Positions 13,224 to 51,903 are shown, counted from the stretch's first letter. The stretch: 57,746 nucleotides of DNA from an uncultured Clostridia bacterium (GCA_964520055.1 CAZFME010000003.1:1-57746), one strand, 5' to 3'. The notes: generated by a model from the letters alone, not told the origin. A program made the numbers and translations.

Positions 13224-14310
13224 TATGTATATACCATTGAAAACTTTGTTTGAAAACTTGGGTTTAGAGGTGATAATACCACCTTTATGCACCAAAAGAA
13301 CCCTCGAGTTAGGAGTAGCTTACTCACCGGAATTTGCTTGCCTGCCTCTAAAAATAAATATAGGTAATTTTATTGAAGCATTAGAAAAGGGTGCTGACAC
13401 TATTATAATGGCCGGTGGGGTAGGACCATGCAGATTCGGATATTATGGAGAAGTGCAAAGAGAAATTTTAAAAGACTTGGGTTTTGATTTTGAGATGATT
13501 ATTTTGGAACCCCCGCAGGGTCACTTTTTTGAATTGCTTAATAAGATCAGATCGATCACCAATAAAAAAAATAATTCTCTTAAGGATATTGCAAGAGCAA
13601 CGCGCCTCGCATGGAAAAAAGCACTACTTTTAGACAAAGCAGATATGGAATCCTGCAAAACAAGGCCTATAGAAAGAACAAGGGGCCAAACCGATAAAAC
13701 ATATAATTGTATCTTGCAGCAAATAAATGATATCAGGAATGAAGATGAAATAAATGATTTTAAAGTTAAAATCCCGCAGGTTTTTTCCGATATACAAGTA
13801 AGCAGTGATAAATCTCCTATTAAAGTCGGTATAGTAGGAGAAATATATACCGTACTTGAGCCTTTTGTAAACCTAAATATTGAAAAACAGCTAGGTGAAC
13901 TTGGAGTTGAAGTATATAGGAATATTTATATCACTGATTGGGTCTGTGAAAACCTTTTACCTTCATGTCTTAAACCTAAAGATTATAAAAAGATGCTGAA
14001 ATTAGCTCAACCTTTTATAAACTGTTTTATAGGGGGCCATGGTCAAGAGTCGGTGGCACAAATTGTTAACTTTTCCAACATGGATTTTGATGGAGTTATC
14101 CATCTGCTTCCTTTTACATGTATGCCAGAAATAGTGGCAAAGAGTGCCATACCGAGAGTAAGCCAACAGCATTGTATTCCAGTAATGACAATCATATTGG
14201 ATGAGCACTCGGCAAAGATAGGTCTTAGAACCCGTCTGGAAGCTTTTGTAGATATGATATACCATAATAGGGAGGTTAAAGATTTTGCAAAAGTATGCCT
14301 TGGGAATTGA
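13195..14310 (+). CDS. 2-hydroxyacyl-CoA dehydratase-like / DUF2229 protein, part 2
   Basis: KITFPHMGNMYIPLKTLFENLGLEVIIPP N-terminus, GVGPCRFGYY and LLPFTCMPE motifs. TTG start after AGGAAGGAAG, overlaps the preceding gene. Confidence 0.7.
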   Translation: MKITFPHMGNMYIPLKTLFENLGLEVIIPPLCTKRTLELGVAYSPEFACLPLKINIGNFIEALEKGADTIIMAGGVGPCRFGYYGEVQREILKDLGFDFEMIILEPPQGHFFELLNKIRSITNKKNNSLKDIARATRLAWKKALLLDKADMESCKTRPIERTRGQTDKTYNCILQQINDIRNEDEINDFKVKIPQVFSDIQVSSDKSPIKVGIVGEIYTVLEPFVNLNIEKQLGELGVEVYRNIYITDWVCENLLPSCLKPKDYKKMLKLAQPFINCFIGGHGQESVAQIVNFSNMDFDGVIHLLPFTCMPEIVAKSAIPRVSQQHCIPVMTIILDEHSAKIGLRTRLEAFVDMIYHNREVKDFAKVCLGN

Positions 14311-15250
14311 TGTAGGGTCAGTAAGTACCAATCTGGTTTTGCTTGATGAAAAGTATCATCTTGTTAAAAAGCTTTATTTGAATACAGAAGGCAATCCCAT
14401 AGAAACTATTAAAAAAGGCCTTGCGATTTTGCAAGCGGAATTAAAAGGTGTAGATATCTATGCCGTCGGGACCACAGGCAGCGGAAGGCAATTAGCAGCT
14501 ATATTGGTCGGAGCCGATATTGTAAAAAATGAAATCACTGCTCATGCAGCTGCGGCTCTTAGTTATTATCCAGATACACAAACAGTTTTGGAAATAGGGG
14601 GTCAGGATTCTAAAATAATAGTTATTAGAAACAAAACCGTTGTAGATTTTGCAATGAATACGGTATGCGCCGCAGGTACCGGCTCTTTTTTGGATAGGCA
14701 GGCTCAGCGATTGGGGATTCCTATAAGTCAATTTGGAGAAATAGCCCTTAAATCACATAATCCAACCAGAATTGCCGGTCGCTGCGCTGTTTTTGCCGAA
14801 TCGGACATGATACATAAACAGCAAATGGGGCACACCATTGAGGATATATTAAAAGGACTATGCGAGGCCTTGGTCAGGAATTTTCTTTCAAATGTAGCAA
14901 AAGGGAAAGAAATAAGGCCCTTAGTGATATTTCAAGGCGGTGTAGCGGCCAATACAGGTATAAAAAGAGCTTTTGAAGAACAATTCGAATGCAGTATTAC
15001 AATACCTGAAAATTATGATGTAATGGGTGCAATAGGCGCGGCAATCCTAGCTGCAAACCATATTGCTTCACGGCAAGAAATAACTCGCTTTTTTGGAATG
15101 AGTATAGCTACTCAAAATTATAAAGTGAAAAGCTTAGAGTGTAAGGGATGCCCAAATAATTGTGAAATAATACAACTGTTTTGTGATAGAAAATTAATGG
15201 CAAGGTGGGGAGACAGATGTGGCAAATGGTCTTCAACCGTTGCCGTTTAA
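14285..15250 (+). CDS. HgdC/BcrAD-BadFG type CoA-substrate-specific enzyme activase (ATPase)
   Basis: GIDVGSVSTN phosphate-1 motif, plus VCAAGTGSF and RCAVFAESD (cluster-bridging Cys positions of HgdC-type activators). C-terminal CKGCPNNC...RCGKW tail. TTG start after GGGAGG. Confidence 0.85.
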   Translation: MQKYALGIDVGSVSTNLVLLDEKYHLVKKLYLNTEGNPIETIKKGLAILQAELKGVDIYAVGTTGSGRQLAAILVGADIVKNEITAHAAAALSYYPDTQTVLEIGGQDSKIIVIRNKTVVDFAMNTVCAAGTGSFLDRQAQRLGIPISQFGEIALKSHNPTRIAGRCAVFAESDMIHKQQMGHTIEDILKGLCEALVRNFLSNVAKGKEIRPLVIFQGGVAANTGIKRAFEEQFECSITIPENYDVMGAIGAAILAANHIASRQEITRFFGMSIATQNYKVKSLECKGCPNNCEIIQLFCDRKLMARWGDRCGKWSSTVAV

Positions 15251-15470: not shown

Positions 15471-15668
15471 CCTCATCTCGATAAGAGTTGAGGTAGAGGA
15501 GCGATAGATCAAGAGTAGATTTGTGGAGGCATGGGAGCCGATTAAGCAAATTAAAAGGGGTCATCGCCGAAGCATAGTTTCCCCCAAGAAGCTATGCTGG
15601 GCTTATATCAAATAGATATAAGACTGTCACCGTAAGTCATATTCGGTGAAGCGCTACTTCATAAGAGA
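15471..15668 (+). promoter_or_regulatory. Lysine riboswitch (L-box)
   Basis: Conserved L-box blocks in order: GGTAGAGGAGCGA, AAGAGTA, GGAG, GGGGTCATCGCCGAAGC, TGCTGG, ACTGTCAC, GGTGAAGCGCTAC. Located upstream of lysA. Confidence 0.9.
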
Positions 15669-15688: not shown

Positions 15689-15722
15689 AAACAACCGGCA
15701 AATATCCCCGGTTGTTTTTGCT
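15689..15722 (+). terminator. Riboswitch expression-platform terminator
   Basis: AAACAACCGG (15689-15698) / CCGGTTGTTT (15708-15717) followed by TTGCTTT. TATTTGCC (15673-15680) can pair with GGCAAATA (15697-15704) as an antiterminator. Confidence 0.85.
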
Positions 15723-15747
15723 TTACATAAATGAAAGGAGAAACGGT

Positions 15748-17082
15748 ATGTTTTATGGAACCAGTAGAATTAATAAATATAACCATTTGGAAATAGGTGG
15801 ATGTGACACGGTAGAACTTGTAAAAGAATTCGGCACTCCTCTATATGTAATGGATGAGAATCATATCCGTGAAAATTGCCGTTCATATACAAACAGTCTG
15901 CGAAATATGCATGAAAACAGCGAAGTGATTTATGCTGCAAAGGCTTTCTTGACTATGGAAATGTGCAAATTAATACAGGAAGAAGGTCTATGTCTTGACG
16001 TGGTATCGGGAGGCGAGCTTTATCTGGCCATAAAATCCGGTTTTCCTGCGAAAAGGATATATTTTCATGGCAATAACAAGTCTTATACTGAATTGGAAAT
16101 GGCTGTTGAATATGGTGTTGGACGCATTGTAGTAGATAATTTTTTCGAACTTGAATTGTTAAGAGATTTAACTAAAAAATATCAAGGTAAAAAAATAAAG
16201 ATATTATTGCGTTTGACACCAGGTATTGAGGCTCATACGCACGATTATATAAAAACCGGCCAACTTGATTCCAAATTTGGATTTGTAATGGAAAACGGGC
16301 ATGCGTTTATGGCTGTAGAAAATGCCTTAAGCATAAAAAGCTTAAAGCTCATGGGCTTTCATTGCCACATCGGTTCTCAAATATTTGAAGAGCAGCCTTT
16401 TAAAGACACAGCAGAAGTTATGATTCAATTCGCCAAAAATATAAAAGAAAAATATGGTTTTAAAACCAAAGAAGTAAACTTTGGAGGTGGATTTGGTATC
16501 AAATATACAGAAAAAGATAAACCATTGACCGTGAAACATTACGTTACAGTTTTAGTCGAATCTGTCAAGGAATCTTGCAAAAAACACGGCCTACCCATTC
16601 CAAAGATATTGATAGAACCAGGCAGAGCCATTATAGGCGAAGCCGGTACAACCCTGTATACAATTGGTGCAATAAAAAACATCCCCGGTGTTAGAAAATA
16701 TGTCAGCGTAGATGGCGGAATGAGCGATAATATAAGACCGGCATTATATGGAGCAAAGTATTCAGCCGTTGTTGCAAATAAAGTTAATGGCTCAAAGAAA
16801 GAAACGGTGTCGATTGCAGGAAAGTGCTGTGAATCCGGGGATATGTTAATCTGGGATATTGACCTACCCAAAATCGCACCAGGTGATATTTTAGCTGTTT
16901 TTAGCACAGGAGCTTATCACTATTCTATGGCCAGTAACTATAATATGATACCAAAACCTGCGGTGGTCTTTGTAAAAAGCAAAACCGCCCGGCTTGTTGT
17001 TCGTCGACAAACCTACGAAGATTTGTTGGGCAATGAAGTATTTTTACCACATTCCAAGCATATTTCTTTGGCAAACTTCTAG
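15748..17082 (+). CDS. lysA: Diaminopimelate decarboxylase
   Basis: Orn/DAP/Arg decarboxylase fold motifs (YAAKAF PLP-Lys, HCHIGSQ, GGGFGI, CESGD). The track start 15712 lies inside the terminator. ATG 15748 follows GGAGAAA. Confidence 0.95.
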   Translation: MFYGTSRINKYNHLEIGGCDTVELVKEFGTPLYVMDENHIRENCRSYTNSLRNMHENSEVIYAAKAFLTMEMCKLIQEEGLCLDVVSGGELYLAIKSGFPAKRIYFHGNNKSYTELEMAVEYGVGRIVVDNFFELELLRDLTKKYQGKKIKILLRLTPGIEAHTHDYIKTGQLDSKFGFVMENGHAFMAVENALSIKSLKLMGFHCHIGSQIFEEQPFKDTAEVMIQFAKNIKEKYGFKTKEVNFGGGFGIKYTEKDKPLTVKHYVTVLVESVKESCKKHGLPIPKILIEPGRAIIGEAGTTLYTIGAIKNIPGVRKYVSVDGGMSDNIRPALYGAKYSAVVANKVNGSKKETVSIAGKCCESGDMLIWDIDLPKIAPGDILAVFSTGAYHYSMASNYNMIPKPAVVFVKSKTARLVVRRQTYEDLLGNEVFLPHSKHISLANF

Positions 17083-21402: not shown

Positions 21403-23061
21403 ATGCGAAAAAAAGCAATAATTGCTTTCTTATCTTTATATATAGGTATCACAATATTAGGTTTTGAAGCGAGAGCTGAAAACATACAATTAACAGTCAG
21501 TGCAAAATCTTTTGTTTTAATTGACTTAATAAGCGGTAGGATTCTTTTGGAAAAAAATTCGGAGGAAAAAAGAGCTATGGCAAGTACCACCAAAATAATG
21601 ACTGCAATCATAGCCTTGGAAAAAGGGTATATTAAGTCCCGGGTAAAGGTAAGTCCGAGGGCAGCTTCAGTTGGTGGTTCCTCTTTTCATCTTAGCACAG
21701 GGGAAGTTTTATCTTTGGAAAATATGTTATATGGGCTTTTACTGCCATCAGGTAATGATGCCTCGATAGCTATTGCAGAACACATCGGAGGCACTGAAGA
21801 AAACTTTGTGCATATGATGAATGAAAAAGCTTTAGAGTTGGGAGCATTGAGTACTCATTTTACAAACCCTCACGGCCTTGATAACCCAAAGCACTATACC
21901 ACTGCAAAAGACCTTGCTTTGATAGCAAGATATGCATTAAGTAGTAATAAATTCTGCAATATAGTACAAACTAAAACAAAAGAGATAAAAGATGGAAATT
22001 ACCCTAGGCAAATATTGAACACTAACAGACTATTATGGGAATTTGAAGGCACCAACGGTATTAAAACTGGTTATACTGGAAATGCAGGAAAATGCCTTGT
22101 GGCTTCTGCTGGTAGAAATAATTTGCAATTGCTATCTATAGTTTTGGGTACAGATAATCATTTTTCCGACTCTTTCACACTATTAAATTACGGTTTTGTC
22201 AATTATAAATTAACACCTATAATAAGCAAAAATAAATATTGTACAACTGTATCAGTTCAAAATGGGTGTTATGACAAAGTAGGTTTGATGACAAAGGATG
22301 ATATCAATATTGCATTAAAGGAAAATGAAATTGTCACATTTAATTTGATTATTCCTAAAAAGATTAAGGCCCCTGTTTACAAAGGAGAAAATATAGGAGA
22401 ATTGCAGGTTTATATCAAAAATGATCTAATTTTTTCAAACCCCCTTATTGCAATGAGCGATGTACGAGTTAAAAAATATAATGACATTTTATATAAGATC
22501 TTGAGATTATGGATGAAAGGTAATAGTAGAATAAAGAATGAAAACCTATCAAAAAAGTTAAATTGTGAGAAGGATTTTCGTTTTTTATGGCGAAGTAATA
22601 TAATAAAAGAGCTCATCAATGATGAGGAGGTATATTTAATGACCGATCCATATAAGAAAGGAATGTTTAAAGTTAATCCCTACGCTAAAAAGAAACCCTT
22701 GAAAGGTAATTTAGTTGTGGTGCTAGACGGCAAATACGATAAGAGAGGCTTACAGCTTATTCCACAAGCCTCAAGATGTCTAACTGCCGACGAGGTACAC
22801 GAAATGATTTTAACCGATGAAGATAAAAAACCTGGAGATACGATAAACAAAATAGCGTATATAGGGTTTTTTGCAGTAAAGGAGAGCGCCGTAATTATAG
22901 TAGGGGACAAGGTTATGATCAATGGGCAAGGGATTGGAAAAATTGCAGGATTTGACGAAACCCACATACCAAATCATTACAATATTGTTATATATGGAAA
23001 AGACCGCATTTCCGGAAGTGAAAGAAATCTTGACCTGAATGCTGAGGTTATAATTGGATAA
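21403..23061 (+). CDS. dacB: D-alanyl-D-alanine carboxypeptidase (dacB position) reading through into an unrelated 140-aa module
   Basis: aa 1-385 form a complete PBP5-type enzyme (STTKIMT, SGNDA, KTGY, C-terminal beta domain). The ORF continues in frame for 167 further codons. See the separate entry for 22639-23061. Confidence 0.8.
   Translation: MRKKAIIAFLSLYIGITILGFEARAENIQLTVSAKSFVLIDLISGRILLEKNSEEKRAMASTTKIMTAIIALEKGYIKSRVKVSPRAASVGGSSFHLSTGEVLSLENMLYGLLLPSGNDASIAIAEHIGGTEENFVHMMNEKALELGALSTHFTNPHGLDNPKHYTTAKDLALIARYALSSNKFCNIVQTKTKEIKDGNYPRQILNTNRLLWEFEGTNGIKTGYTGNAGKCLVASAGRNNLQLLSIVLGTDNHFSDSFTLLNYGFVNYKLTPIISKNKYCTTVSVQNGCYDKVGLMTKDDINIALKENEIVTFNLIIPKKIKAPVYKGENIGELQVYIKNDLIFSNPLIAMSDVRVKKYNDILYKILRLWMKGNSRIKNENLSKKLNCEKDFRFLWRSNIIKELINDEEVYLMTDPYKKGMFKVNPYAKKKPLKGNLVVVLDGKYDKRGLQLIPQASRCLTADEVHEMILTDEDKKPGDTINKIAYIGFFAVKESAVIIVGDKVMINGQGIGKIAGFDETHIPNHYNIVIYGKDRISGSERNLDLNAEVIIG
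22639..23061 (+). other. 140-aa module of unknown function with its own SD and ATG, in frame with dacB
   Basis: GAGGAGG (22624-22630), 8 nt, ATG 22639. Sequence MTDPYKKGMFKVNPYAKKKPL...GKIAGFDETHIPNHYNIVIYG. Not part of any PBP5 I know. No stop separates it from dacB. Confidence 0.4.
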
Positions 23062-23095
23062 AATTATTGACAATTTTTGAAAGGAGGTGTAATAA

Positions 23096-23554
23096 ATGTC
23101 TTTTGAAAGGAAAATACAGGAAATGGGTATTACTTTACCCGAACCACCAAAACCGGTAGCAGCATATGTTCCTGGCGTCAAAGTAGAAAAGTACATTTAC
23201 ACTGCCGGACAAATTCCATTTGTCAATGGAGAATTAAAATATAAAGGCAAAGTTGGCAAAGAAGTATCTGTGAATGATGCTTATGAAGCAGCGAAAATAT
23301 GTGTGTTAAACTGCCTTAGTATAGTAAAATCTTTGGCCGGAAGCCTTGATAATGTTGAAAAAATCGTTAAGGTAGTTGGATTTGTTAATAGTGCCGACGG
23401 TTTCAACCAGCAGCCAAAAGTTATAAATGGAGCTTCAGAACTTTTGGGTCAGATTTTCGGGGATACAGGGGCTCATGCTCGTTCAGCCGTCGGTGTCAAT
23501 CAACTTCCAATGGACGCTACTTGTGAAGTGGAGCTTATAGTAAAATTAAAATAA
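23096..23554 (+). CDS. RidA/YjgF/UK114 family reactive-intermediate (enamine/imine) deaminase-like protein
   Basis: 152 aa with LPEPPKPVAAYVP...AGQIP...HARSAVGVNQLPMDA..VEL, the family hallmark layout. SD AAAGGAGG. Confidence 0.88.
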   Translation: MSFERKIQEMGITLPEPPKPVAAYVPGVKVEKYIYTAGQIPFVNGELKYKGKVGKEVSVNDAYEAAKICVLNCLSIVKSLAGSLDNVEKIVKVVGFVNSADGFNQQPKVINGASELLGQIFGDTGAHARSAVGVNQLPMDATCEVELIVKLK

Positions 23555-23569
23555 TAAGGAGGAATTAAA

Positions 23570-25036
23570 ATGACTAAATTCGCTAAGAAATTTGAGATGT
23601 ATAAATCTCTTCAAGTCAATACTGCCAATATTTATGCCGATGCACGGAAAGCCGCTGATGAAATAGGTATTCCTACGGAATTACGAGGTAAATTTGGCCT
23701 TACAGGAGCTATTTCAGGTTGTCCCTCTCCTTTAAATAAAAAAATAAGGGGAGCTATGGAAAAAGGTGCCACTGAAGTTATTCCTTTAGCAAAACTCATA
23801 GACGAAATCCGGTGTTTAGTTAAAGATGTTTACGGTGATGAATACGATGCAGCACCGATAAACACATGTGAAGCCGGAATATGGGTCGCTTTTGATGTGC
23901 TGTTCTCACCTCCTATGCAGGGTCGTGGTGACAACTACCAGGCTCGTTATATCATACCTTACGAAAAACACTTACACCACCACGGTGGTTATGGAAGACC
24001 ATTCCCTGGCAGATTTAAGGACATTGTGGCCGACAGAGGTTCTACTGCCGGTGAATTAGGTTTCTATGGCAAAAGACTCAATAACTTAAGTGTCTATATA
24101 GCACCTTTAATCGGAGCCGACTATTCAGTACATGGAATCAAGTATCATCCTGCAATTCAATTGACAAAGGTTGACCCCGAAGCATCAGCCAAGAAGATAA
24201 AGACTATAGCCGAACGCCACGCTTGTACGCTTACAGGTATTACCTCCCTTGCTTATGATACCCCCGGATACGGATATGGAGTAAAAGATAATGATGGAGT
24301 ACCTGTGTTGCAAAAACGCTTGGCAGAGATTGCTAAGAACTTTGATGTACCTTATATAATGGATAACGCATGGGGTGTTCCCTTTATAGGCCATGATATT
24401 TCTAAAAGCGGAGCGGATGTGATCATATACAGCATGGATAAAGCCAGCGAATCTCCAACATCGGGTTTGATAATCGGTAAAGAGGAATATATGGTACCTA
24501 TTCGTAGAGCTCTCGGAATGCATGGTGATAGGTATGGAACAACGGCATCTTACGGAAAAGCAGCTTATGTTACAAATGATCCCGGTAAAGAAGCACTCCT
24601 CGGTATGATTGCAGCATTGAAAGAATTAAAAGATAATCCCGATGACTTTAAAAAACCTGTTGACGATATGTATAATATCGTTAAAGAAGAGTTTGACCAA
24701 ATAGATCCTAAGATAAAGAAAGGCTTAATCATATCCAAATCCTATAACTCTAGAGCAGTTGAAGTTAACTATGAAAACACTTGGAGTGGTAATGAGCTTG
24801 GAGTTCCCATTTTTTCAATTGAAGACATGTATGCTGGAAGCCAGTTAATGCAAACTGGTCTTTCTCAGATGGGTGTGATTCCAACAGTGGCTTATGACGG
24901 TAATATTCTGATTTCACCCGGTCTTGGCACCACTGACGATGATGGTCAGATCATAGAAAGTAACTTTAGATATGCCGTAAAAGCTCAGGTTAAACTTATG
25001 GAGATTATCGCCAAATACAGTGGATATATAGAGTGA
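23570..25036 (+). CDS. SelA-like fold-type I PLP-dependent enzyme (function unknown)
   Basis: IIYSMDKASESPTSGLIIGKEE resembles the SelA/DgaE PLP-lysine block (SGDKLLGGPQAGIIxGKKE). 488 aa. SD AAGGAGGA. Confidence 0.55.
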   Translation: MTKFAKKFEMYKSLQVNTANIYADARKAADEIGIPTELRGKFGLTGAISGCPSPLNKKIRGAMEKGATEVIPLAKLIDEIRCLVKDVYGDEYDAAPINTCEAGIWVAFDVLFSPPMQGRGDNYQARYIIPYEKHLHHHGGYGRPFPGRFKDIVADRGSTAGELGFYGKRLNNLSVYIAPLIGADYSVHGIKYHPAIQLTKVDPEASAKKIKTIAERHACTLTGITSLAYDTPGYGYGVKDNDGVPVLQKRLAEIAKNFDVPYIMDNAWGVPFIGHDISKSGADVIIYSMDKASESPTSGLIIGKEEYMVPIRRALGMHGDRYGTTASYGKAAYVTNDPGKEALLGMIAALKELKDNPDDFKKPVDDMYNIVKEEFDQIDPKIKKGLIISKSYNSRAVEVNYENTWSGNELGVPIFSIEDMYAGSQLMQTGLSQMGVIPTVAYDGNILISPGLGTTDDDGQIIESNFRYAVKAQVKLMEIIAKYSGYIE

Positions 25037-25051
25037 TTCAAGAATAATAAG

Positions 25052-25085
25052 AAGTGACGCCAAAGGACAATCCCAGGCGTCACTT
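25052..25085 (+). other. Intercistronic 10-bp hairpin between the PLP-enzyme and flavoprotein genes
   Basis: AAGTGACGCC (25052-25061) / GGCGTCACTT (25076-25085), 14-nt loop, weak T-run. Possible partial terminator or processing site. Confidence 0.5.
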
Positions 25086-25114
25086 TAATGAAAAATCATT
25101 AAGGAGGTATTTGC

Positions 25115-26398
25115 ATGGCCAAAGTAGTTGTGATAGGCGGAGGATGGGCTGGCTCAGGGGCTGCTTTATCGGCAAAAAAAGCCGGTGCAGATGTAGTATT
25201 ATTAGAAAGAACGGATATGTTATTGGGGACAGGTCTGGTCGGCGGCATTATGAGAAATAATGGCAGGTATGCTGCTACAGAGGAAATGATAGCTATGGGC
25301 GGAGGTGAACTGTTTCAGGTCACGGACTGTGTAGCAAGACATCGTAATATCGACTTTCCCGGTCACAAACATGCTTCTCTATATGATGTAGCATTAATAG
25401 AGCCAGCTGTAAAAAAAGTTCTAATTGATGCAGGAGTTGAAGTTTATACCGAGAGTCGTGTAAAAGATGTAATAGCTGAAGAGAATAAGATACTAGCCGT
25501 TGTCACTGATAATGGTATAAAATACGAAGCTGATGTTTTTGTGGAATGCACTGGAACCGCTGGACCTCAAGGAAACTGCACCAAGTATGGCAATGGTTGT
25601 GCTATGTGTGTTTATAGATGTCCCAGTTATGGCCCAAGGGTGAGTATTGCAGCCAAAATGGGAGTCAAGGAAATGATAGCCAAAAAAGCCGACGGCACTT
25701 ATGGGGCCATGAGCGGCTCCTGTAAACTTTTCAAGGAGTCTCTTTCAAAGGAAATAATTGATCAATTAAATTCTACCGGTGTAGCGGTTATAGCTGTACC
25801 GGAGCATGCCAAAGAAGGAGCGGAAATCCTTACTAAAAAAGCCTGCCAACAGTACGCCTTGAAAGAATACATAGAAAATGTAATACTACTGGATACTGGA
25901 CATGCAAAATTAATGACACCATTCTTTCCATTAAATAATTTGAGACAAATTCCTGGATTTGAAAATGCACGATATGAAGACCCTTATGCTGGGAACTTAG
26001 GCAACTCCATGAGATATCTGGCCATTTCGCCTAGGGACAACTATTTAAAAACTGAAGGATTGGAAAATCTCTTTTGCGCAGGCGAAAAAGCCGGGCCATT
26101 GGTAGGTCACACAGAAGCTATTTGCACCGGAACATTGGCCGGAGCAAATGCAGTTCGCTGGGTTGCCGATAAGAAACTCATTGAAATTCCCAGAGAACTT
26201 TCCGTCGGAGATGCCATCGCCTATGTCAAGGAACAAATGAAAACCGAAGAGGGTATATCGAAAAAGTATACTTTTTCCGGGTCCGTTTATTTTGAAAGAA
26301 TGAAAAAACAGGGACTATATACAACTGATATAGATGAAATAAAAGATCGTGTCGAAAAGGCTGGGATGACAAACGTGTTTAATCAGAAAGTTGTATAA
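25115..26398 (+). CDS. FAD-dependent oxidoreductase with a Cys-rich insert
   Basis: N-terminal dinucleotide fold VVVIGGGWAGSGAALSAKKAGADVVLLE. Insert CTGTAGPQGNCTKYGNGCAMCVYRCPSYG (6 Cys in 29 aa). 427 aa. Confidence 0.7.
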   Translation: MAKVVVIGGGWAGSGAALSAKKAGADVVLLERTDMLLGTGLVGGIMRNNGRYAATEEMIAMGGGELFQVTDCVARHRNIDFPGHKHASLYDVALIEPAVKKVLIDAGVEVYTESRVKDVIAEENKILAVVTDNGIKYEADVFVECTGTAGPQGNCTKYGNGCAMCVYRCPSYGPRVSIAAKMGVKEMIAKKADGTYGAMSGSCKLFKESLSKEIIDQLNSTGVAVIAVPEHAKEGAEILTKKACQQYALKEYIENVILLDTGHAKLMTPFFPLNNLRQIPGFENARYEDPYAGNLGNSMRYLAISPRDNYLKTEGLENLFCAGEKAGPLVGHTEAICTGTLAGANAVRWVADKKLIEIPRELSVGDAIAYVKEQMKTEEGISKKYTFSGSVYFERMKKQGLYTTDIDEIKDRVEKAGMTNVFNQKVV

Positions 26399-26423
26399 AA
26401 ACCGTATGCTGGAAACATTATAT

Positions 26424-26456
26424 AAAAGGGGTCATTTATATGACTCCTTTTATATT
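26424..26456 (+). terminator. Rho-independent terminator after the flavoprotein gene
   Basis: AAAAGGGGTCA / TGACTCCTTTT (one G-U pair), 6-nt loop, T-rich tail. Confidence 0.7.
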
Positions 26457-26882
26457 CAATAATGCTGAGGGAAGATAATTGCACAACTTTTGGCCATACA
26501 TTTGATATATTTTGGTATGGTCAAAATTTCATTCTTGTTATTACAGGTTTGGTGTTAATCACTATAGTAGCTGTTTTTCTATTATAATTTAACTTCAAAG
26601 TGAAAAACTACATTCTTATTAGATACAACTATAAAGTATACTTCTCCTGCACTTTTATAGACATTACCAAAAGCAATTTGGATGATTTTTTCTAATTATC
26701 TATCTGGAAAAATATTTATAATAATGATATGCTTAGCTTGTATATTATTATATTCTCATTTAGAAAACGATTATATATAGCAAGGATTTTTGATTAGAAC
26801 ACTTTAATAAAAATTTTTGTTCATAATTTTATTTAGCAATTGTTATTAAATTATCATTTTTAATATTAAACGGGGGTTTGAA

Positions 26883-27647
26883 ATGTTACATGAAAAACAG
26901 CGAATATTATTTTTTATTTTAAAGGCTATCGATAGCTCACAAGTGCCTGTCGGTTCTGGTTATTTGCGTAACAGCTTACAAAGGCAGGGGTTTGATATCA
27001 GTGAAGCAACTGTCGGTAGAATGTTAAGACAGCTAGACATCAAAGAATATACTGAAAAAATCGGTTTTAAAGGCAGAATACTAACTCCAATTGGCAAAAT
27101 AAAATTAGAAGAACTCGAGCGTGAAAATACAATTAACCATTATGGAAAGGAATTATTAAATGTAATAAGAGTAACAGGTAAACAAGAACTTCTTGATGCA
27201 TTGATTGCAAGAAAGGCCATTGAAAGTCAGCTTGCCAAATTAGCCGCTATATATATAACCGATGAGGAAATTCATAAAATGAAACAGGTCATCAAAAGAC
27301 AACAGATGCACGTCAATAAAGGTATTTCTATAGCCGAAGATGATGTGGAATTCCATAAAATCATAGCTAAGGCAGCAAGAAACAGAATTCTGGATGCTGC
27401 TATGGATTTAATAAGACAGCATGGACAGCTTTCACCAATGCTTGAGTATATAAGAAAAGAAGTGAAGAGTAGAGTTCTTTTGGACCATAAGAATATCTAT
27501 AAAGCTATTGCCTCTAGGAAGCCGGAACTGGCCGAAGAAGCAATGGTACGCCATATAGAAAAACTTGAAAGGGACGTAAAAAAGTATTGGGAAATTGTTT
27601 ATGAAAAAGACAGCAGCCTTGATGTTGTAAGAGAATTAAGGATGTAA
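26883..27647 (+). CDS. Transcriptional regulator, winged-helix N-domain plus FCD (FadR C-terminal type) ligand domain
   Basis: N-terminus SEATVGRMLRQLD...KGRILTPIG (wHTH). C-terminus LIARKAIESQLAKLAA...DDVEFHKIIAKAARNRIL (FCD-like helices). Preceded by a 430-nt AT-rich spacer. Confidence 0.7.
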   Translation: MLHEKQRILFFILKAIDSSQVPVGSGYLRNSLQRQGFDISEATVGRMLRQLDIKEYTEKIGFKGRILTPIGKIKLEELERENTINHYGKELLNVIRVTGKQELLDALIARKAIESQLAKLAAIYITDEEIHKMKQVIKRQQMHVNKGISIAEDDVEFHKIIAKAARNRILDAAMDLIRQHGQLSPMLEYIRKEVKSRVLLDHKNIYKAIASRKPELAEEAMVRHIEKLERDVKKYWEIVYEKDSSLDVVRELRM

Positions 27648-27666
27648 TTTTTTGTAATAATTGAAG

Positions 27667-27687
27667 TTACTCATCTATGATGAGTAA
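27667..27687. promoter_or_regulatory. Perfect 21-bp palindrome (candidate operator) in front of the B12 module
   Basis: TTACTCATC-TAT-GATGAGTAA, arms exact reverse complements. Lies between the regulator stop (27647) and the SD (27688-27699) of the 77-aa gene. Confidence 0.5.
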
Positions 27688-27704
27688 AGAGGGGAGAAGA
27701 TGTA

Positions 27705-27938
27705 ATGTTGGATATTATGGAAAAAGTTTTGGACGCTGTAGATTTGGAAATGTATTTAGTTTGCAAAGATGAAATTGAGGCAGAAAAATTTACAATAGAA
27801 TTAATGAACAAATTGGGGTTTCAAGATATATCCGTAGTTTTTATCGAGCATCAGGGACCGGGTGCAAGGGTTAGAGCCAGGGGATATATATATAAACCAG
27901 GTGACCGTTATGGTTGGCTTTTTAACCAAGGTTATTAA
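27705..27938 (+). CDS. Small protein (77 aa) of unknown function, first gene of the B12 module
   Basis: SD AGAGGGGAG. ORF ends 17 nt before the 605-aa gene. No motif recognised. Confidence 0.5.
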   Translation: MLDIMEKVLDAVDLEMYLVCKDEIEAEKFTIELMNKLGFQDISVVFIEHQGPGARVRARGYIYKPGDRYGWLFNQGY

Positions 27939-27955
27939 GGAAGGGGAATGTTTCG

Positions 27956-29773
27956 ATGGAAAAGAAGAAAATCTTGTTAGCACCTCTTGACCCTGTTCAT
28001 GATATCGGCCTTAAAATGATTAAGAGGGGATTGGAACAGAAAGGCCATGAAGCTTTACTTATGCCTCCGGATTATTCACAAGAAGAAATAATCAAATCCA
28101 TTATAGATAATAATGCAGATATTGTTTTAGTGAGCCGTACTCTTGGATACGGCGTGGCAGAAATTTTGGGGAGATTTATTGATTTGGCTGAAGCGGCTGA
28201 CATAAGAGATAAGGTGAAAATCGGTATAGGTGGAATGGCGATACGACCTGAACTCGCCGCAGAATTAGGTTTTGATGCCGGATTCGGACCTGGTACTACC
28301 GTAGCAGAAGCAGTAGCCTTTGTGGAAGGAAGAGATTACATTCCAGAAGAAACTAGAGGTAAAAAAAGCAAGAAAGACATTACCGAAGGATATAATTATA
28401 TTTTTCACAATAAAAATATTGAAAAACTGTTGGATTCAATAGTCGACGAAATTCTGGATTACGTAAACAATAAAACGACTACTGCCATTCAGAGGGCAGA
28501 GATACGCAGACAAATACTGGAGAGTAATAATGAATTGGAAAGACAAAAACTCCGTGCGGACTATTCAAAGCTATGTGATGATGTAATTAAAGCTTTTTAT
28601 GAATCAGGCAAATACCGCGAAAAAACCCGTCCACTGACTGATGACGAAGTAAATGCTCTTAATCGATATGTAGATGAAGTGAACTTGCGAATGAATCCTT
28701 TACAGTTGCAGCATACTGACAAAAATCCTGTAGTCTTTATTCAATATGGAACAGGATGTCCATTCATGGATATTGCTCATATTAAATCATGTGAAGCTTG
28801 GGGCGCAGATGGAGCAGTGCACTTTGATCCATCTTGGGGTGCACGAACAGAAGGTTTTTTAGAGGGGTATATAACTCATGAGGAAGACGGTTCTGTTATA
28901 ACTTATGAGAACCTGAAAAGTATCCGGACATCCTTGATACCCAATACCCTTTGGCAAGTTAGAGCTCACCGGGGACTGAACACTCCGGAAACGGTCTTAT
29001 TGGCCGGAAAAATTGGGGCAGATTTAACCAAAATAAATATTGCCTATGGTTCATTAGGGGGAGGTACCGATCCTGAACGTCTTACTGTAGATGCAGTAGA
29101 GGCTATCAAGTATGCAGCTGAATTTCATATGCCCTTTGATGTAGTGACCAATGAGGAACTTTGCGGCGTCCCCGCTTATAAAGCTTTTGCAGGAATGCTG
29201 ATAGTATCAAAACTTGGTTTGCGGCTTGGAGGCAAACCTATTCTCCAGCCCTTATTTTGTTACTCACCGGAGGTCATGATTAGCGGCCAAATGGAAAATA
29301 ACTATGTAGATTTTAATGCGGCAAAAATATATTGCCTTAGAAATATTGTCAACGCTCCTATATGGTGTGGTGCTCCCATCGGATTCTTAACCCAAACCGA
29401 AGATCGTGTGCAATCATCACTGATGACGGCACTTCATGCATCTCTTGCTTCTTCACTGGGTGTTGATGGTATTTCCATAGCTTCCTCCGATGAAGCTTTT
29501 TCCAAAGGACCTATAACCGCTCCCGCCAGAATTGATACTTTAAGAGCAACCCAGGCATCTTTTAGATTTTTTGGGCAATCCAATATTGTTCCCACCGATA
29601 ATGCTCAAAAATGGGCTGAAGAAATAGAAGATGGGATAGAAAAGGTACTGGAGTCAGTAGTAAAAAACGGGAATTTTATCGATGCACTATATCAAGGCAT
29701 ACTTGGAAGCAGGGAAGACGGTGCATATCCTGGAAGAGCAGGCAGAAATTCGGTAATAAAACAACTCCATTAA
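27956..29773 (+). CDS. Cobalamin-binding domain fused N-terminally to an aminomutase-like large domain (605 aa)
   Basis: aa 1-130: LDPVHDIG (MetH-like VHDIG), VSRTL (SxL), IGIGGMA (GG), ELGFDAGFGPGT. C-terminal tail GILGSREDGAYPGRAGRNSV resembles the tails of KamD/OraE-type barrels (from memory). Confidence 0.7.
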   Translation: MEKKKILLAPLDPVHDIGLKMIKRGLEQKGHEALLMPPDYSQEEIIKSIIDNNADIVLVSRTLGYGVAEILGRFIDLAEAADIRDKVKIGIGGMAIRPELAAELGFDAGFGPGTTVAEAVAFVEGRDYIPEETRGKKSKKDITEGYNYIFHNKNIEKLLDSIVDEILDYVNNKTTTAIQRAEIRRQILESNNELERQKLRADYSKLCDDVIKAFYESGKYREKTRPLTDDEVNALNRYVDEVNLRMNPLQLQHTDKNPVVFIQYGTGCPFMDIAHIKSCEAWGADGAVHFDPSWGARTEGFLEGYITHEEDGSVITYENLKSIRTSLIPNTLWQVRAHRGLNTPETVLLAGKIGADLTKINIAYGSLGGGTDPERLTVDAVEAIKYAAEFHMPFDVVTNEELCGVPAYKAFAGMLIVSKLGLRLGGKPILQPLFCYSPEVMISGQMENNYVDFNAAKIYCLRNIVNAPIWCGAPIGFLTQTEDRVQSSLMTALHASLASSLGVDGISIASSDEAFSKGPITAPARIDTLRATQASFRFFGQSNIVPTDNAQKWAEEIEDGIEKVLESVVKNGNFIDALYQGILGSREDGAYPGRAGRNSVIKQLH

Positions 29774-29817
29774 ATAGATTCTTATAATATATTTATAAGC
29801 TTTAGTGTAGGGGGTTA

Positions 29818-30900
29818 ATGATGAGCATAATAATCGGTATAGCTGGAACTGCCAAAAACACCGGTAAAACTACCACCACATTTGCCATACTTGATGAGTT
29901 GTACAAGAACAAAACATCGGTAGCATTGACCAGTATTGGTTATGACGGGGAAGAAATAGACAATATTACAAGATTACCAAAACCTCGTATATTTGTCAAA
30001 CAAGACACTATTTTGGCCACTGCTCAAAAATGCCTCAATGCAGGAAGTGCTGACTACGATATACTGGAAACAACTGATATCATGACACCACTTGGTAGAA
30101 TATATATCGTAAGAGTTGTTAAAGAAGGCCTGGCAGTAGTTGCAGGACCTAATAAAGGCAGCCAATTAAAATATGTCGCAAACAAAATGATTAATGATTT
30201 TAGGTGCAATGTAGTCCTTGTTGATGGTGCTTTAAACCGAATTGCGCCAATGATAGAAACCAATGGTATTATTCTTGCAACCGGTGCATCACGAAATGTT
30301 AATATTGATATTTTAGCTGAAGAAACCAAAGCTTTGCATGAGTTGCTTAATTTACCCGAGGTGTCAAAAGATGAATTGCAATATTTTATAGATATCAAAA
30401 AAATAGCCCTTTCCCCCAGAAATATAAATGAAAAAACATATTTTCTTAATTACGGTTCGCTGATAGATAATAAAACAATATGTGAAATAATTGATAAAAT
30501 CAACGACATAGGAACAGTTTTTATACCTGCACTAATATCGGAATATGCACTCAAAAAACTTAACGATGGTTTAGACAAACTGTGGGCAAATAAAACATTA
30601 GTTATTAAAGACCCTATAAAATTAATTACCGGAGGAAACCCTGAAATTCTATTAAAAGAAATAAATAAGATAAAGTTTAACGGCGGGAATGTAAGAACCT
30701 TGAAAAATCTCCCCTTACTAGCCATTACCGTAAATCCCTTTTATCCAAAGTATCGATTTGATAAAAACAGTTACGAGCCAGGTTACATTGACAGGGAAAA
30801 ATTATTGGAAAAAATGAGAACTTCTGTTAACATTCCTGTAATAGATATAAAACATGAGGGGCCTTTAAAATTGTTGGAAACCATATTAAGTCGTGTATAA
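29818..30900 (+). CDS. P-loop NTPase of unknown family (360 aa)
   Basis: N-terminal GIAGTAKNTGKTTTT Walker-A variant (Mur-ligase/MobB/cDPG-synthetase-like GTxxxxGKT), later VLVDGALNR. SD GGGGG. Confidence 0.5.
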   Translation: MMSIIIGIAGTAKNTGKTTTTFAILDELYKNKTSVALTSIGYDGEEIDNITRLPKPRIFVKQDTILATAQKCLNAGSADYDILETTDIMTPLGRIYIVRVVKEGLAVVAGPNKGSQLKYVANKMINDFRCNVVLVDGALNRIAPMIETNGIILATGASRNVNIDILAEETKALHELLNLPEVSKDELQYFIDIKKIALSPRNINEKTYFLNYGSLIDNKTICEIIDKINDIGTVFIPALISEYALKKLNDGLDKLWANKTLVIKDPIKLITGGNPEILLKEINKIKFNGGNVRTLKNLPLLAITVNPFYPKYRFDKNSYEPGYIDREKLLEKMRTSVNIPVIDIKHEGPLKLLETILSRV

Positions 30901-30925
30901 CTATAATAAAACGGAGGTTTAAATC

Positions 30926-31621
30926 ATGGAAACTGTGGCTATTATAGGTACAGGCCGCATGGGCAGCCTTATAGCCCGTAAAATATACTCCCATTATAAT
31001 ATGATTTTAATAGATAAAGACTTGAGACAATGCGGCCTATTGGCAAAAGAGACAGCTGGGTTAGCTACTTCTGAGTATTCTGCCCTATCACTTTCCGACT
31101 ACATTATTATAGCTCTACCGGCTACTGTGATTCCAGAAGTTATACAAAAAATAAAATCTTTTGTTGTAAAAGAACACATACTCATAAATATTTCGACAGA
31201 TACGGAAAAACCGGTGTTTGAATCTCTAAAAGGCTTATGTAAGCTAACCGCCGCAAAGATTATAGGGCATGCTCAACACATGGCTACCACCGATGAATTA
31301 CCGCTTATTATTATAGACGGAGAGGACCCGGATACATCTAATAAAACAGCAAATATTTTTGCAAAACTGGGCACCGTGTGTTTTGGTGATGAAAAAACGG
31401 TAAAAAACATCAACAATATAGCCAGTGAAGAGGGTATTAAAGCTGCTTTAAGTATTAAAAAAAGACTTGAAGAAACTGATGTTCCATCAGAATATATAAG
31501 TTTTGCAATTAGAAATGTAGCCTGTGGTACCATGAATGCATACGCATTAGGCGATGGGGGGCCTTTTGCACAAAAAATAATAAAAAAACTGAAAAAGAGC
31601 GGGAAAACTGATTCACTTTAG
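30926..31621 (+). CDS. ProC-like NAD(P)-binding Rossmann oxidoreductase (231 aa)
   Basis: VAIIGTGRMGSLIARKI dinucleotide motif and IIALPATVIPEV, as in pyrroline-5-carboxylate reductase / F420-type NADP oxidoreductase N-domains. SD GGAGG. Confidence 0.6.
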   Translation: METVAIIGTGRMGSLIARKIYSHYNMILIDKDLRQCGLLAKETAGLATSEYSALSLSDYIIIALPATVIPEVIQKIKSFVVKEHILINISTDTEKPVFESLKGLCKLTAAKIIGHAQHMATTDELPLIIIDGEDPDTSNKTANIFAKLGTVCFGDEKTVKNINNIASEEGIKAALSIKKRLEETDVPSEYISFAIRNVACGTMNAYALGDGGPFAQKIIKKLKKSGKTDSL

Positions 31622-31634
31622 AATCAGTTTTTTT
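31604..31634 (+). terminator. Rho-independent terminator closing the B12 module
   Basis: AAAACTGATTC-ACTTTA-GAATCAGTTTT then TTT. The stop codon lies in the loop/3' arm. Confidence 0.85.
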
Positions 31635-39271: not shown

Positions 39272-41281
39272 GTGAAATATTTGGAGGTAATTATTGCCGA
39301 TCACTCGGGATTTTGTTTTGGTGTCAAAAAAGCCATGGAAACAGTAGAGAGGTTAATCGAAAAGAAACAAAGTGCCTCTACACTGGGTCCTATAATTCAT
39401 AATCCTCAAGTAGTTAAAAAATTGAAACGCTCCAGAATAGTTGCCACAGAATTACATGATATAAAAGAAGGCAATGTAATAATCAGGACACATGGTGTGG
39501 GGCCTGATATGATAAAGCAATTGGAATTACGGTCATTAAATATTATTGACTGTACATGCCCACTAGTAAAAAGAGTCCATAAATTAGCCCGTGAAATCTC
39601 AACAAAAGGCTACCTTACTATTATTATAGGTGATCATAATCATCCGGAAGTTGAGGGCATAAAAAGCTGGTGTAATGGTGATGTGAAAGTAATAGAAAGT
39701 GTAGAAGAAGCAAAAAATTTTTATACGAGTAAAAAAGTCGGTATAGTTGTACAGACTACACAAACTGAAGAAAATGTAAAAAAAATAATGGATATATTAC
39801 AGTCAAAACTGAATATTGATACTTTCCATAATACGAGGTGTAAAGCTACTTTGGAGCGGCAAAAATCAGCCGCTGCCGTGGCTGCCAACGTAGATACAAT
39901 GTTGGTAATTGGAGGCAAAAACAGCTCCAATACTAAAAAATTAGCTCAAGTTTGTCAGAATGTAGGGGTAAAAGTATACCATATTGAAACAGCAAAAGAA
40001 CTTAAAAAAGAATGGTTCAAACATATCGATAAAATTGGTATTACCGCAGGAGCTTCTACACCTGACTGGATTATAAAGGAGGTTATTTCTAAGATGGATG
40101 AACTTAATAAAGACATTGACAACCAAGAAATAGCAACAAACGAGGAAGAAGGTGAACTAAACTACGAAAACACTTTTGCTGATGTGAAAGAAGGTGCTAT
40201 TGTAGAAGGGATTGTAGCTAAGGTTGACAGTAATGAAATTTTAGTAGATATAGGATATAAGTCCGATGGTATTATCCCGATAAATGAACTTTCAAATGTA
40301 GCTTTCGAATCCCCAGGGGAAATTGTAGATGTTGGAGATAAAATACATGTTTATATTATAAAATTAGAGGATAAAAATGGCAATGTTATTCTTTCAAAGA
40401 AAAAAGCCGATGCAATGAATACATGGAATTTTATAGAGGAAACATACAATAATCAAAGTGATTTGGAAGGAGAAGTAATAGAGGTTGTAAAAGGTGGTGT
40501 GTTAGCAAACATCAACAGTATTAAGGGATTTATTCCTGCTTCACACTTAGATCTAAAATATGTCCCAGATTTGAGTGTATTTATAGGTCAAAAATTAAAA
40601 TTGCGTGTTCTTGAAATTGATAGTAAAAAGAATCGTGTAGTATTATCCCATAGACTTATACTTGAACGAGAAAGAGAAGAGTTAAAAGAAAAAACCTGGG
40701 CAACTATTGAAGAAGGTCAAACTATTAAAGGTGTGGTAAAAAGGTTAACTGATTTCGGGGCATTTGTGGATATCGGTGGTGTTGATGGTCTGATACACAT
40801 TTCAGATCTGGCATGGCATAAAATTAAACACCCTTCTGAAATAGTAAATGAGGAACAGGAAGTGGATGTGCTGGTTTTAAAAGTAGATAAGGAGCGAGGG
40901 CGCATTTCCCTTGGCTTAAAACAGACTATGCCTAATCCATGGGATGATTTGGACAAAAAATATAAAATTGGATCCATAATTGAGGGCAAAATCGTCAAAT
41001 TAGTAAGCTTTGGTGCTTTTATAGAAGTTGAACCAGGTGTTGAAGGCCTTGTTCACATTTCCCAAATATCTCAAGAACATATATCCAATCCAGGTGATGT
41101 TTTGACCACAGGAGATATTGTAAAAGTAAAGATTATGGACATAAATACAAAAGAAAAGAGAATGAGCCTCAGTATAAAAGAAGCTCAGGATGAGAATGAA
41201 AGTAATCAAGTATATGAAAAGTCCAAAGAAAACGGTGTAACTATCGGTGAAATGGTTGGGGATCTTTTTGATAAAAATTAA
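39272..41281 (+). CDS. ispH: Bifunctional IspH (HMBPP reductase) / ribosomal protein S1-repeat fusion
   Basis: aa 1-280 IspH (GFCFGVKKA, three conserved Cys, GGKNSSNT). aa 300-669 hold four S1 OB repeats (GxV..L..FGAFVDIGG.DGLIHISD). This fusion is known in Clostridia. The start could be TTG 39281. Confidence 0.9.
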   Translation: MKYLEVIIADHSGFCFGVKKAMETVERLIEKKQSASTLGPIIHNPQVVKKLKRSRIVATELHDIKEGNVIIRTHGVGPDMIKQLELRSLNIIDCTCPLVKRVHKLAREISTKGYLTIIIGDHNHPEVEGIKSWCNGDVKVIESVEEAKNFYTSKKVGIVVQTTQTEENVKKIMDILQSKLNIDTFHNTRCKATLERQKSAAAVAANVDTMLVIGGKNSSNTKKLAQVCQNVGVKVYHIETAKELKKEWFKHIDKIGITAGASTPDWIIKEVISKMDELNKDIDNQEIATNEEEGELNYENTFADVKEGAIVEGIVAKVDSNEILVDIGYKSDGIIPINELSNVAFESPGEIVDVGDKIHVYIIKLEDKNGNVILSKKKADAMNTWNFIEETYNNQSDLEGEVIEVVKGGVLANINSIKGFIPASHLDLKYVPDLSVFIGQKLKLRVLEIDSKKNRVVLSHRLILEREREELKEKTWATIEEGQTIKGVVKRLTDFGAFVDIGGVDGLIHISDLAWHKIKHPSEIVNEEQEVDVLVLKVDKERGRISLGLKQTMPNPWDDLDKKYKIGSIIEGKIVKLVSFGAFIEVEPGVEGLVHISQISQEHISNPGDVLTTGDIVKVKIMDINTKEKRMSLSIKEAQDENESNQVYEKSKENGVTIGEMVGDLFDKN

Positions 41282-50313: not shown

Positions 50314-50360
50314 AAAAGGGATAATATTGCCTTGCCCAAATCTAAAGTTTAACCAATTTT

Positions 50361-50400
50361 AAAAATAAACAGCACCTGTAAAAAGGTGCTGTTTATTTTT
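50361..50400. terminator. Bidirectional terminator between convergent aspB and the SNF transporter
   Basis: AAAAATAAACAGCACCT / AGGTGCTGTTTATTTTT perfect 17-bp stem with A/T runs on both sides. Overlaps the transporter stop codon. Confidence 0.85.
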
Positions 50401-51757: not shown

Positions 51758-51903
51758 GATGAATTATCCTCCTTTTATAATTGTTTTATCCTTGTGTTGT
51801 CCTTTTCTTTTAATTTCCTCCTTTCAACTTAATAAGATACCATAATTTTTTATTAAAAACAAGGGCTTTTGGGAATGTTGTAAATTTTTATGAATTTTGA
51901 ATT

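Follow-up and report, generated by a model that had tools for sequence, protein, structure and literature searches.

We analysed a stretch of 57,746 nucleotides (nt) of DNA from an uncultured Clostridia bacterium (GCA_964520055.1, CAZFME010000003.1:1-57746), hereafter the 57.7-kb window, in which a gene cluster at 22612-31634 surrounds a gene for a mutase-like protein with a cobalamin (B12)-binding domain. In the downstream part of this cluster, five open reading frames (ORFs) follow each other on the plus strand at 26883-27647, 27705-27938, 27956-29773, 29818-30900 and 30926-31621. They are separated by gaps of 57, 17, 44 and 25 nt, in agreement with an earlier reading made from the sequence alone (the sequence-only reading). 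Their products of 254, 77, 605, 360 and 231 amino acids are, in this order, a transcription regulator with winged-helix and FCD domains, a candidate small subunit of a mutase, the putative fused mutase itself, a KamB-like P-loop NTPase that is a candidate cofactor chaperone or reactivase, and an NAD(P)-binding oxidoreductase that we regard as a lineage-specific accessory. A hairpin resembling an intrinsic terminator (about 31604-31634, plus strand; CTGATTC-ACTTTA-GAATCAG followed by seven T) overlaps the last stop codon, with a folding energy of -17 kcal/mol and a z-score of -4.25. The sequence-only reading had called this a strong terminator. The hairpin and the T tract are indeed present, but "strong" is somewhat generous; a consensus terminator scan of the window did not list the hairpin.

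Four more genes lie upstream on the same strand and had been omitted from that reading. They encode a DUF6917 protein of 140 residues (22639-23061), a Rid/YjgF-family imine deaminase-like protein of 152 residues (23096-23554), a fold-type I pyridoxal 5'-phosphate (PLP) enzyme of 488 residues (23570-25036) and a GidA/TrmFO-like flavin adenine dinucleotide (FAD) oxidoreductase of 427 residues (25115-26398). Between the two groups of genes, at 26391-26584 on the plus strand, we found the remnant of a transporter gene. A tblastn search with the intact transporter of about 490 residues from a related locus (L001, 4694-6166) showed that the window retains residues 1-44 and 470-490, in two different frames. 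An internal deletion of about 1.3 kb in this gene accounts for the long gap of 485 nt in front of the regulator gene.

Related loci were surveyed in one genome per species. In total, 190 stretches encode a relative, and 79 loci were analysed with 10-kb flanks; partner counts come from BLAST searches in which the window proteins were compared with every ORF of these loci. With few exceptions the hosts are anaerobic Bacillota, among them Tepidanaerobacter, Thermosediminibacter, Peptococcaceae, Desulfosporosinus, Sporomusa, Pelosinus and Heliorestis, and identity within the mutase family is at least 60% across several Bacillota orders. The 77-residue protein was present in 76 of the 79 loci, and the 488-residue PLP enzyme, present in 75, is the tightest partner of the mutase after it. 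Next came the DUF6917 protein (62 loci), which was exposed as a further conserved partner by de novo clustering of the neighbouring ORFs, the flavoprotein (61 loci), the KamB-like NTPase (58 loci), the FCD regulator (57 loci) and the Rid protein (51 loci). In contrast, the 231-residue reductase was found in only 13 loci, all from the Tepidanaerobacter-like clade. In one metagenomic locus (L085) the seven non-regulatory genes form a single operon with a different gene order. Furthermore, a transporter of 460-490 residues with a weak CitMHS signal (ion-transporter type) occurs in 27 loci, and Opp-type ABC systems accompany the cluster in several loci.

In 16 loci (L007, L013, L019 and L080 among them), a PyrK-like FAD/NAD-binding Fe-S electron-transfer subunit (PRK05802-like) adjoins the cluster; the window lacks this gene. 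It may be a redox partner of the 427-residue flavoprotein. Some genomes carry two paralogous clusters (L055 and L057, on the same contig of Desulfosporosinus sp. OT; L022 and L077; L036 and L046; L076 and L078), and some of these are minimal, consisting of transporter, regulator, small subunit, mutase and PLP enzyme. Such clusters suggest that several related substrates exist, for which the mutase and the PLP enzyme together set the specificity.

The regulator matches the Pfam domains FCD (78.4 bits) and HTH_12, a winged helix (39.9 bits), so that the domain assignment of the sequence-only reading stands. An operator-like palindrome, CTCATC-N3-GATGAG, to which no strand is assigned, lies at 22612-22626 (CTCATCAATGATGAG), 13 nt 5' of the DUF6917 start codon, and again at 27670-27684 (CTCATCTATGATGAG), 20 nt 5' of the 77-residue gene. 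These are the two matches in the window at up to one mismatch, whereas 0.04 are expected. The downstream copy overlaps a -10-like TATGAT in a promoter-like site at 27652-27681. Across the 79 loci (1.47 Mb), the same threshold gave 97 matches against an estimated expectation of about three. Of these matches, 74 adjoin genes of the cluster, with sites 5' of the genes for DUF6917 (34), the small subunit (26), the regulator (6) and Rid (5). A cluster-adjacent palindrome was present in 51 of the 57 loci with the regulator, but in only 3 of the 22 loci without it (Fisher's exact test, p = 2e-10).

The arms of the palindrome are invariant in sequence, and imperfect copies are altered in one arm only. 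This favours a DNA operator bound by a protein over an RNA stem, and we consider an RNA hairpin less likely for the same reason. Rfam models detected no riboswitch inside the cluster. Because the palindrome is conserved in the family and co-occurs with the regulator, the two operons, with nine genes in total, appear to form one conserved regulon of anaerobic Firmicutes, of which the five genes noted earlier would be about half.

At the centre of this regulon stands the 605-residue protein. Its N-terminal B12-binding domain, already recognised in the sequence-only reading, matches PF02310 at residues 13-120 with 58.7 bits (cutoff 32.1). It was the only part detected by Pfam and NCBIfam scans, which left the barrel unrecognised; none of the Lys-AminoMut_A and OAM models matched it. 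An AlphaFold2 model built on 71 homologues (mean pLDDT 87) shows a Rossmann domain (residues 1-125), a helical linker and a (beta/alpha)8 barrel. The top Foldseek match of this model in the PDB was KamD, the alpha subunit of lysine 5,6-aminomutase (LAM; 1xrs_A, E = 5e-17, TM-score 0.62), with further KamD-type matches to 8t0v_A and 9q1a_C. OraE of D-ornithine 4,5-aminomutase (OAM; E = 4e-11) and GlmE of glutamate mutase (E = 5.5e-11) ranked next, followed by IcmF and methylmalonyl-CoA mutase. The Rossmann domain is nearest to those of KamE and OraE, with 40% identity over 102 residues and a common ELG(F/Y)DAGFGPG motif.

The barrel is conserved yet isolated in sequence. When residues 126-605 were compared by phmmer with 1.84 billion representative proteins, the 62 matches obtained were all members of the family itself or fragments of such members. 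Likewise, neither phmmer nor the family profile matched the barrel to any mutase among the PDB sequences. For profile comparisons we used the LAM cluster of F. vincentii (L086; Kce-Kdd-KamA-KamB-KamC-KamD-KamE, confirmed by NCBIfam) and the glutamate mutase cluster of Peptoclostridium acidaminophilum as references. With hhalign, the barrel profile aligned to genuine KamD over about 120 columns (E = 5e-6, probability 84-86%), anchored by the motifs GAD, GA(R/T)TEGF, GLxxPE and YGxL, while GlmE was undetected (probability 0.5%). This alignment with common motifs, together with the failure to detect GlmE, indicates that the enzyme descends from the lysine/ornithine aminomutase lineage, with its B12 domain relocated to the N-terminus of the barrel chain. 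These results support its earlier description as a mutase-like protein with a cobalamin domain.

The cobalamin motifs H15-D-I-G18, S60-R-T-L63 (S60-x-x-L63) and G92-G93 are invariant in all 71 sequences, although the spacing from Asp to His (D12-P-V-H15) is three residues instead of the two of DxHxxG. In contrast, the sites that hold PLP in the known aminomutases are largely missing. KamE has its His ligand at H133 and the PLP lysine K144, 11 residues further on, in the loop NMKGYAGHY. This loop is gone in the 605-residue protein, where the spacing from His to GLE is 10 instead of 18 residues, i.e. 8 fewer. The position that phmmer aligns to the PLP lysine Lys629 of OraE is variable (K in 52, R in 13, A in 3 and N in 3 of the 71 sequences). 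In LAM, the PLP site comprises R184, G187-Q188-S189, S238, Y263, R268 and N299 (PMC3958899). In the hhalign alignment of the barrels, R184 corresponds to an invariant D291, S238 to an invariant R339 and R268 to G369, while G187-Q188-S189 falls within a deletion of nine residues between two firm anchors. Only Y263, which stacks on PLP, is retained among the barrel PLP residues that were aligned, as Y364. The 605-residue enzyme thus probably does not bind PLP in the manner of LAM and OAM, which weakens the amino-acid aminomutase chemistry implied by the sequence-only reading.

The partner genes of the known pathways are missing as well, as that reading had pointed out. Searches with tblastn using genuine Kce, Kdd, KamA, KamC, KamD, GlmL, GlmE and methylaspartase gave no matches in the window, and NCBIfam scans, which covered 37 of the window proteins, revealed no orr, ord or ortAB. 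We do not file the enzyme as a lysine or ornithine aminomutase, because the Rossmann lysine, the PLP-phosphate site and the pathway partners are all missing.

The gene for the 77-residue protein adjoins the mutase gene in all 76 loci that have it, with a median gap of -1 nt and an overlap in 41 of them. This arrangement fits the two proteins as subunits of one enzyme. Comparisons of the small protein with known subunits gave weak signals, namely a sub-cutoff match to OAM_dimer (E = 1.3e-3) seen in 5 of 18 members and a 5.8% probability against the KamE N-terminus (hhalign); its family profile had no match among the PDB sequences. From the similarity of the fold to KamD, the invariance of the cobalamin motifs and the gene overlap, we infer that the two proteins constitute a two-subunit adenosylcobalamin-dependent isomerase, remotely homologous to KamDE and OraSE.

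The 360-residue protein has no Pfam match, but it passes the NCBIfam model NF052386 (lysine 5,6-aminomutase reactivase subunit KamB) with 237.9 bits (cutoff 210), compared with 387.8 bits for genuine KamB, and it is 30% identical to the KamB of F. vincentii over its full length. The P-loop already noted in the sequence-only reading has the sequence GTAKNTGKTT, which is invariant; we take this GTxxxxGKT form to resemble that of DTBS/CobQ-type ATPases, not of G3E GTPases. The median gap between this gene and the mutase gene is only 2 nt. The match to the KamB model supports the NTPase as a KamB-type partner. However, the window has no homologue of KamC, the MutS-like ATPase of the genuine system, or of KamD, and the 79 loci gave a single doubtful KamC-like match. 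The 120 best database matches of the protein have at least 41% identity, and the three that were looked up (P0230, P0267 and P0294) lie in the B12 cluster. Hence, the KamB equivalog model causes proteins that neither accompany KamDE nor serve a lysine aminomutase to be named lysine 5,6-aminomutase reactivase. Searches of PDB sequences yielded no close structure for this protein, the flavoprotein or the reductase.

Several products of the upstream operon belong to families that have hardly been annotated. The DUF6917 protein was recognised by its 48% identity (tblastn) to a homologue in locus L065, which itself matches PF21891 (E = 3e-48). The Rid protein reaches 48 bits against TIGR00004, below the cutoff, and its HaRsAVGV motif is conserved. 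The 488-residue PLP enzyme has no Pfam family, its homologues are all named hypothetical, and it shows weak matches to DgaE/SelA-like NCBIfam models; K291, in an SMDK motif, and D265 are invariant. Its AlphaFold2 model (pLDDT 86) matches Cap15, SepCysS, SelA and class-V aminotransferases in Foldseek at about E = 1e-13. We dropped these matches as a clue to the substrate, since they are generic for class-V/SelA-like folds. The 427-residue flavoprotein matches PF01134 (127 bits) and has an FAD fold of the MnmG/TrmFO type. The motif C155-x6-C162-x2-C165-x3-C169-P, invariant in 69 sequences, suggests that it may bind an iron-sulfur cluster.

Comparison with known systems places the candidate enzyme closest to LAM (KamD/KamE with KamB/KamC; PDB 1XRS, 8T0V). 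Both have a Rossmann domain of the base-off/His-on type (40% identity to KamE), a homologous TIM barrel and a P-loop partner of the KamB family, which lies directly downstream of the mutase gene here. They differ in that a single chain of 605 residues here has the B12 domain fused N-terminal to the barrel, that the presumed dimerisation part is a separate protein of 77 residues, and that the Lys144 and GQS loops of LAM, together with its R184, S238 and R268, are missing. Furthermore, KamC, KamA, Kdd, Kce and Kal are absent here, and the partner enzymes are entirely different. OAM (OraS/OraE; PDB 3KOW, 3KP1) likewise has barrel and Rossmann domain in one polypeptide plus a small subunit, in line with the fold match to OraE and the weak OAM_dimer signal of our 77-residue protein. 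However, the domain order is reversed here, the Lys629 position is variable, and none of the OAM partners orr, ord and ortAB turned up in the scanned proteins.

Glutamate mutase (GlmS/GlmE/GlmL), a PLP-independent adenosylcobalamin mutase that acts on an amino acid in an arginine-rich barrel, offers a functional analogy for the possible role of our enzyme, although only the folds are similar: the barrel shows no sequence or profile relation to GlmE, and GlmL and methylaspartase are absent. In the MeaB/MMAA and IcmF systems of acyl-CoA mutases, G-protein chaperones encoded beside or fused with a B12 mutase serve in loading and repair of the cofactor, and by analogy we propose such a role for the KamB-like protein. 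The regulator resembles the GntR/FCD repressors LldR, NanR and PdhR in its FCD effector domain and in the palindromic operator, a candidate here, at the regulated promoters; its N-terminal domain, however, is a winged helix of the RNase R type (HTH_12) instead of a GntR helix-turn-helix.

Taken together, we favour the reading that 22612-31634 is a single two-operon regulon for an uncharacterised catabolic pathway of an anionic amino compound, and put its probability at roughly 60%. The winged-helix/FCD regulator would bind CTCATC-N3-GATGAG in front of the first gene of each operon and would probably repress both operons until a carboxylate effector binds; repression is suggested because the palindrome stands at the start of either operon and co-occurs with the regulator. 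The 77- and 605-residue proteins would form an adenosylcobalamin-dependent radical isomerase, in which His15 displaces the lower cofactor ligand (base-off/His-on) and a 1,2-rearrangement of the substrate is initiated when the Co-C bond is cleaved homolytically in the KamD-like barrel. The enzyme would have arisen from the LAM/OAM lineage by a move of the B12 domain to the N-terminus and loss of the PLP-lysine loop and of the two phosphate-binding arginines. Given these losses, enzyme-bound PLP is most likely not needed, and the new invariant Arg and His residues at the former PLP positions may bind the substrate directly.

Enzymes of the aminomutase lineage undergo self-inactivation as they turn over (PMC12429584). 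By analogy, the KamB-like NTPase may load the cofactor, or exchange it after inactivation. The PLP enzyme, the Fe-S flavoprotein and Rid would process the rearranged product, or prepare the substrate, via a 2-imino acid that yields a 2-oxo acid and ammonia, a route suggested by the Rid protein; the order of these steps is our proposal. The 231-residue reductase would be an extra found in the Tepidanaerobacter-like clade alone. Many loci have dedicated transporters and some genomes at least two paralogous clusters, which lends the system a catabolic flavour.

With regard to the reaction itself we are more tentative, and place the following proposal somewhat below even odds. The 77-/605-residue enzyme may catalyse a B12-dependent rearrangement that has not been assigned to any enzyme. 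It would then be a PLP-independent offshoot of the aminomutases with an acidic amino compound as its substrate, perhaps a D-amino acid or a diamino acid derived from the turnover of cell walls or peptides. Its reaction would open an uncharacterised catabolic route in anaerobic Firmicutes, with the unclassified PLP enzyme, the Fe-S flavoprotein of the MnmG/TrmFO fold and DUF6917 in the other steps.

Several points weigh against the favoured reading. All support for it is computational: it shows which genes are present and conserved, the folds, the cofactor motifs and where the palindrome occurs, whereas the palindrome's binding protein, adenosylcobalamin as cofactor, PLP independence, the sequence of steps and catabolism are inferences. 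Binding of the palindrome by the regulator is derived from co-occurrence alone, and the palindrome lies unusually near the ribosome-binding site. The choice of a catabolic over a biosynthetic role comes solely from the transporter and regulator context, and the transporter gene is deleted in the window itself. The alignment of the PLP sites is remote (about 85% probability) and covers barrel residues 252-382 only, with N299 of LAM outside it, and the invariant lysines K20, K359, K409 and K457 could hold PLP in another way. The function of KamB is itself known from annotation only, and KamC is absent. Finally, the tight pairing of the mutase with a separate PLP enzyme is compatible with several schemes.

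The alternative that survives best is a third aminomutase dependent on both adenosylcobalamin and PLP. Such an enzyme would move the terminal amino group of a diamino acid (e.g. D-lysine, D-ornithine or 2,4-diaminobutyrate) with PLP on another lysine, for which the four invariant lysines just mentioned are available, and the flavoprotein, Rid and PLP enzymes would then deaminate the product. The closeness of the Rossmann domain and barrel to KamE, KamD and OraE, the KamB-type partner and the retained stacking tyrosine Y364 agree with this alternative. So does a variant locus on an Atribacteria metagenome contig (L084, 650-9089), where an Opp-type ABC transporter and a diaminopimelate dehydrogenase (TIGR01921, 292 bits) adjoin the small subunit, a mutase of 615 residues and the KamB-like protein. 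No PLP-enzyme, flavoprotein or Rid gene was found there across 8 kb upstream, and less than 1 kb is covered downstream of KamB. The dehydrogenase is a possible hint at a D-amino or diamino acid as substrate and, as a single observation, suggests oxidative deamination of a D-alpha-amino centre. However, the Lys144/Lys629 loop is deleted or variable, neither the two phosphate arginines nor the GQS loop is retained, an Arg stands in place of S238, and the barrel is unmatched by the Lys-AminoMut_A and OAM models. We therefore consider a PLP-dependent aminomutase unlikely, although it deserves to be kept in mind.

A good deal less probable is the self-contained unit of five genes proposed in the sequence-only reading, in which the mutase rearranges a substrate and a ProC-like reductase then reduces the resulting imine or ketone. 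The co-oriented genes, the short gaps and the terminal hairpin are in its favour, and in 11 loci the reductase gene lies directly 3' of the KamB-like gene with gaps of 0-56 nt. Yet 66 of the 79 loci lack the reductase, while the omitted upstream genes, which have the operator in common with the mutase operon, are conserved in 51-75 of them. Moreover, the 231-residue protein matches NAD(P)-binding N-terminal domains only (F420_oxidored, 38 bits). Its NAD(P)-binding domain is real, but the label ProC-like is weak, with 21.1 bits against a cutoff of 196.75 for TIGR00112. We found nothing in support of the analogy with PylB/PylC/PylD that accompanied this proposal.

Two further alternatives have very little to recommend them. 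In a corrinoid-dependent methyltransferase system, with the B12 domain as methyl carrier, the barrel as methyltransferase and the NTPase as activase, one would account for the weaker matches of the B12 domain to MtgC, MtbC, MtaC and the corrinoid proteins 1y80 and 4jgi. However, Pfam gave no match to the helical cap (B12-binding_2) and the protein begins at the Rossmann fold; the barrel is homologous to KamD and its top folds are all adenosylcobalamin mutases, and the methyltransferase complex 7xcn matches the B12 domain only, so that we regard this system as highly improbable. Equally implausible is a divergent lysine 5,6-aminomutase with its KamB in ordinary lysine fermentation, for although the KamB equivalog model is passed and some databases label homologues as lysine aminomutase beta subunit, the KamB-like protein is far from true KamB in identity and score, the PLP site is not conserved, and Kce, Kdd, KamA, KamC and KamD of F. 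vincentii are absent from the window and the 79 loci, bar the doubtful KamC-like match.

The regulon as we read it would be of interest for several reasons. To our knowledge, about a dozen adenosylcobalamin-dependent isomerases are known, of which only LAM and OAM belong to this lineage. If the reaction is new, a radical rearrangement would be added to the B12 repertoire. In that case functions would also be given to four more unannotated families, namely the 77-residue subunit, DUF6917, the 488-residue PLP enzyme and the 427-residue Fe-S flavoprotein. Through its conserved operator and its FCD regulator, the system allows the substrate to be approached directly, via the effector of the regulator. 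Members of the mutase family are all annotated as hypothetical or mislabelled, and no function for the cluster was found in the literature and database names, on topics including KamB/reactivase, DUF6917, new aminomutases and Tepidanaerobacter. Similarly, the check for homologues with an experimentally assigned pathway that the sequence-only reading had proposed revealed no characterised homologue or paper.

Genes for cell-wall functions (dac, PBP/FtsW, BacA, M23/LysM and diaminopimelate dehydrogenase) occur near clusters, but these neighbours vary by clade and may be there by chance. A link to peptidoglycan was considered on this account and is kept as a lead only. In the window, an ORF of 552 residues (21403-23061) consists of a D-Ala-D-Ala carboxypeptidase (dac) that runs in frame into DUF6917. 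The dac stop codon is lost by a difference of 1 nt (AAAGGGTAA in L001, AAAGGTAAT in the window), and the reading frame crosses the operator and the ribosome-binding site. This read-through may reflect either a true frameshift or an error of sequencing; the start codon of DUF6917 itself is retained at 22639.

Elsewhere in the window, the sole riboswitch is a lysine riboswitch (RF00168, 124.7 bits; 15486-15664) directly 5' of lysA (15712-17082), unrelated to the B12 cluster. At 12177-15250, two ORFs of 348 and 371 residues without NCBIfam match are followed by an acyl-CoA dehydratase activase (TIGR00241), and these genes may represent a 2-hydroxyacyl-CoA dehydratase-like system. A gene at 39272-41281 encodes a fusion of IspH with ribosomal protein S1 (NF000907, 783 bits). 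Finally, near 50 kb, where the last part of the window begins (about 50000-57746), the sign of the GC skew flips and the genes turn from plus to minus orientation, which suggests a replication-related switch point.

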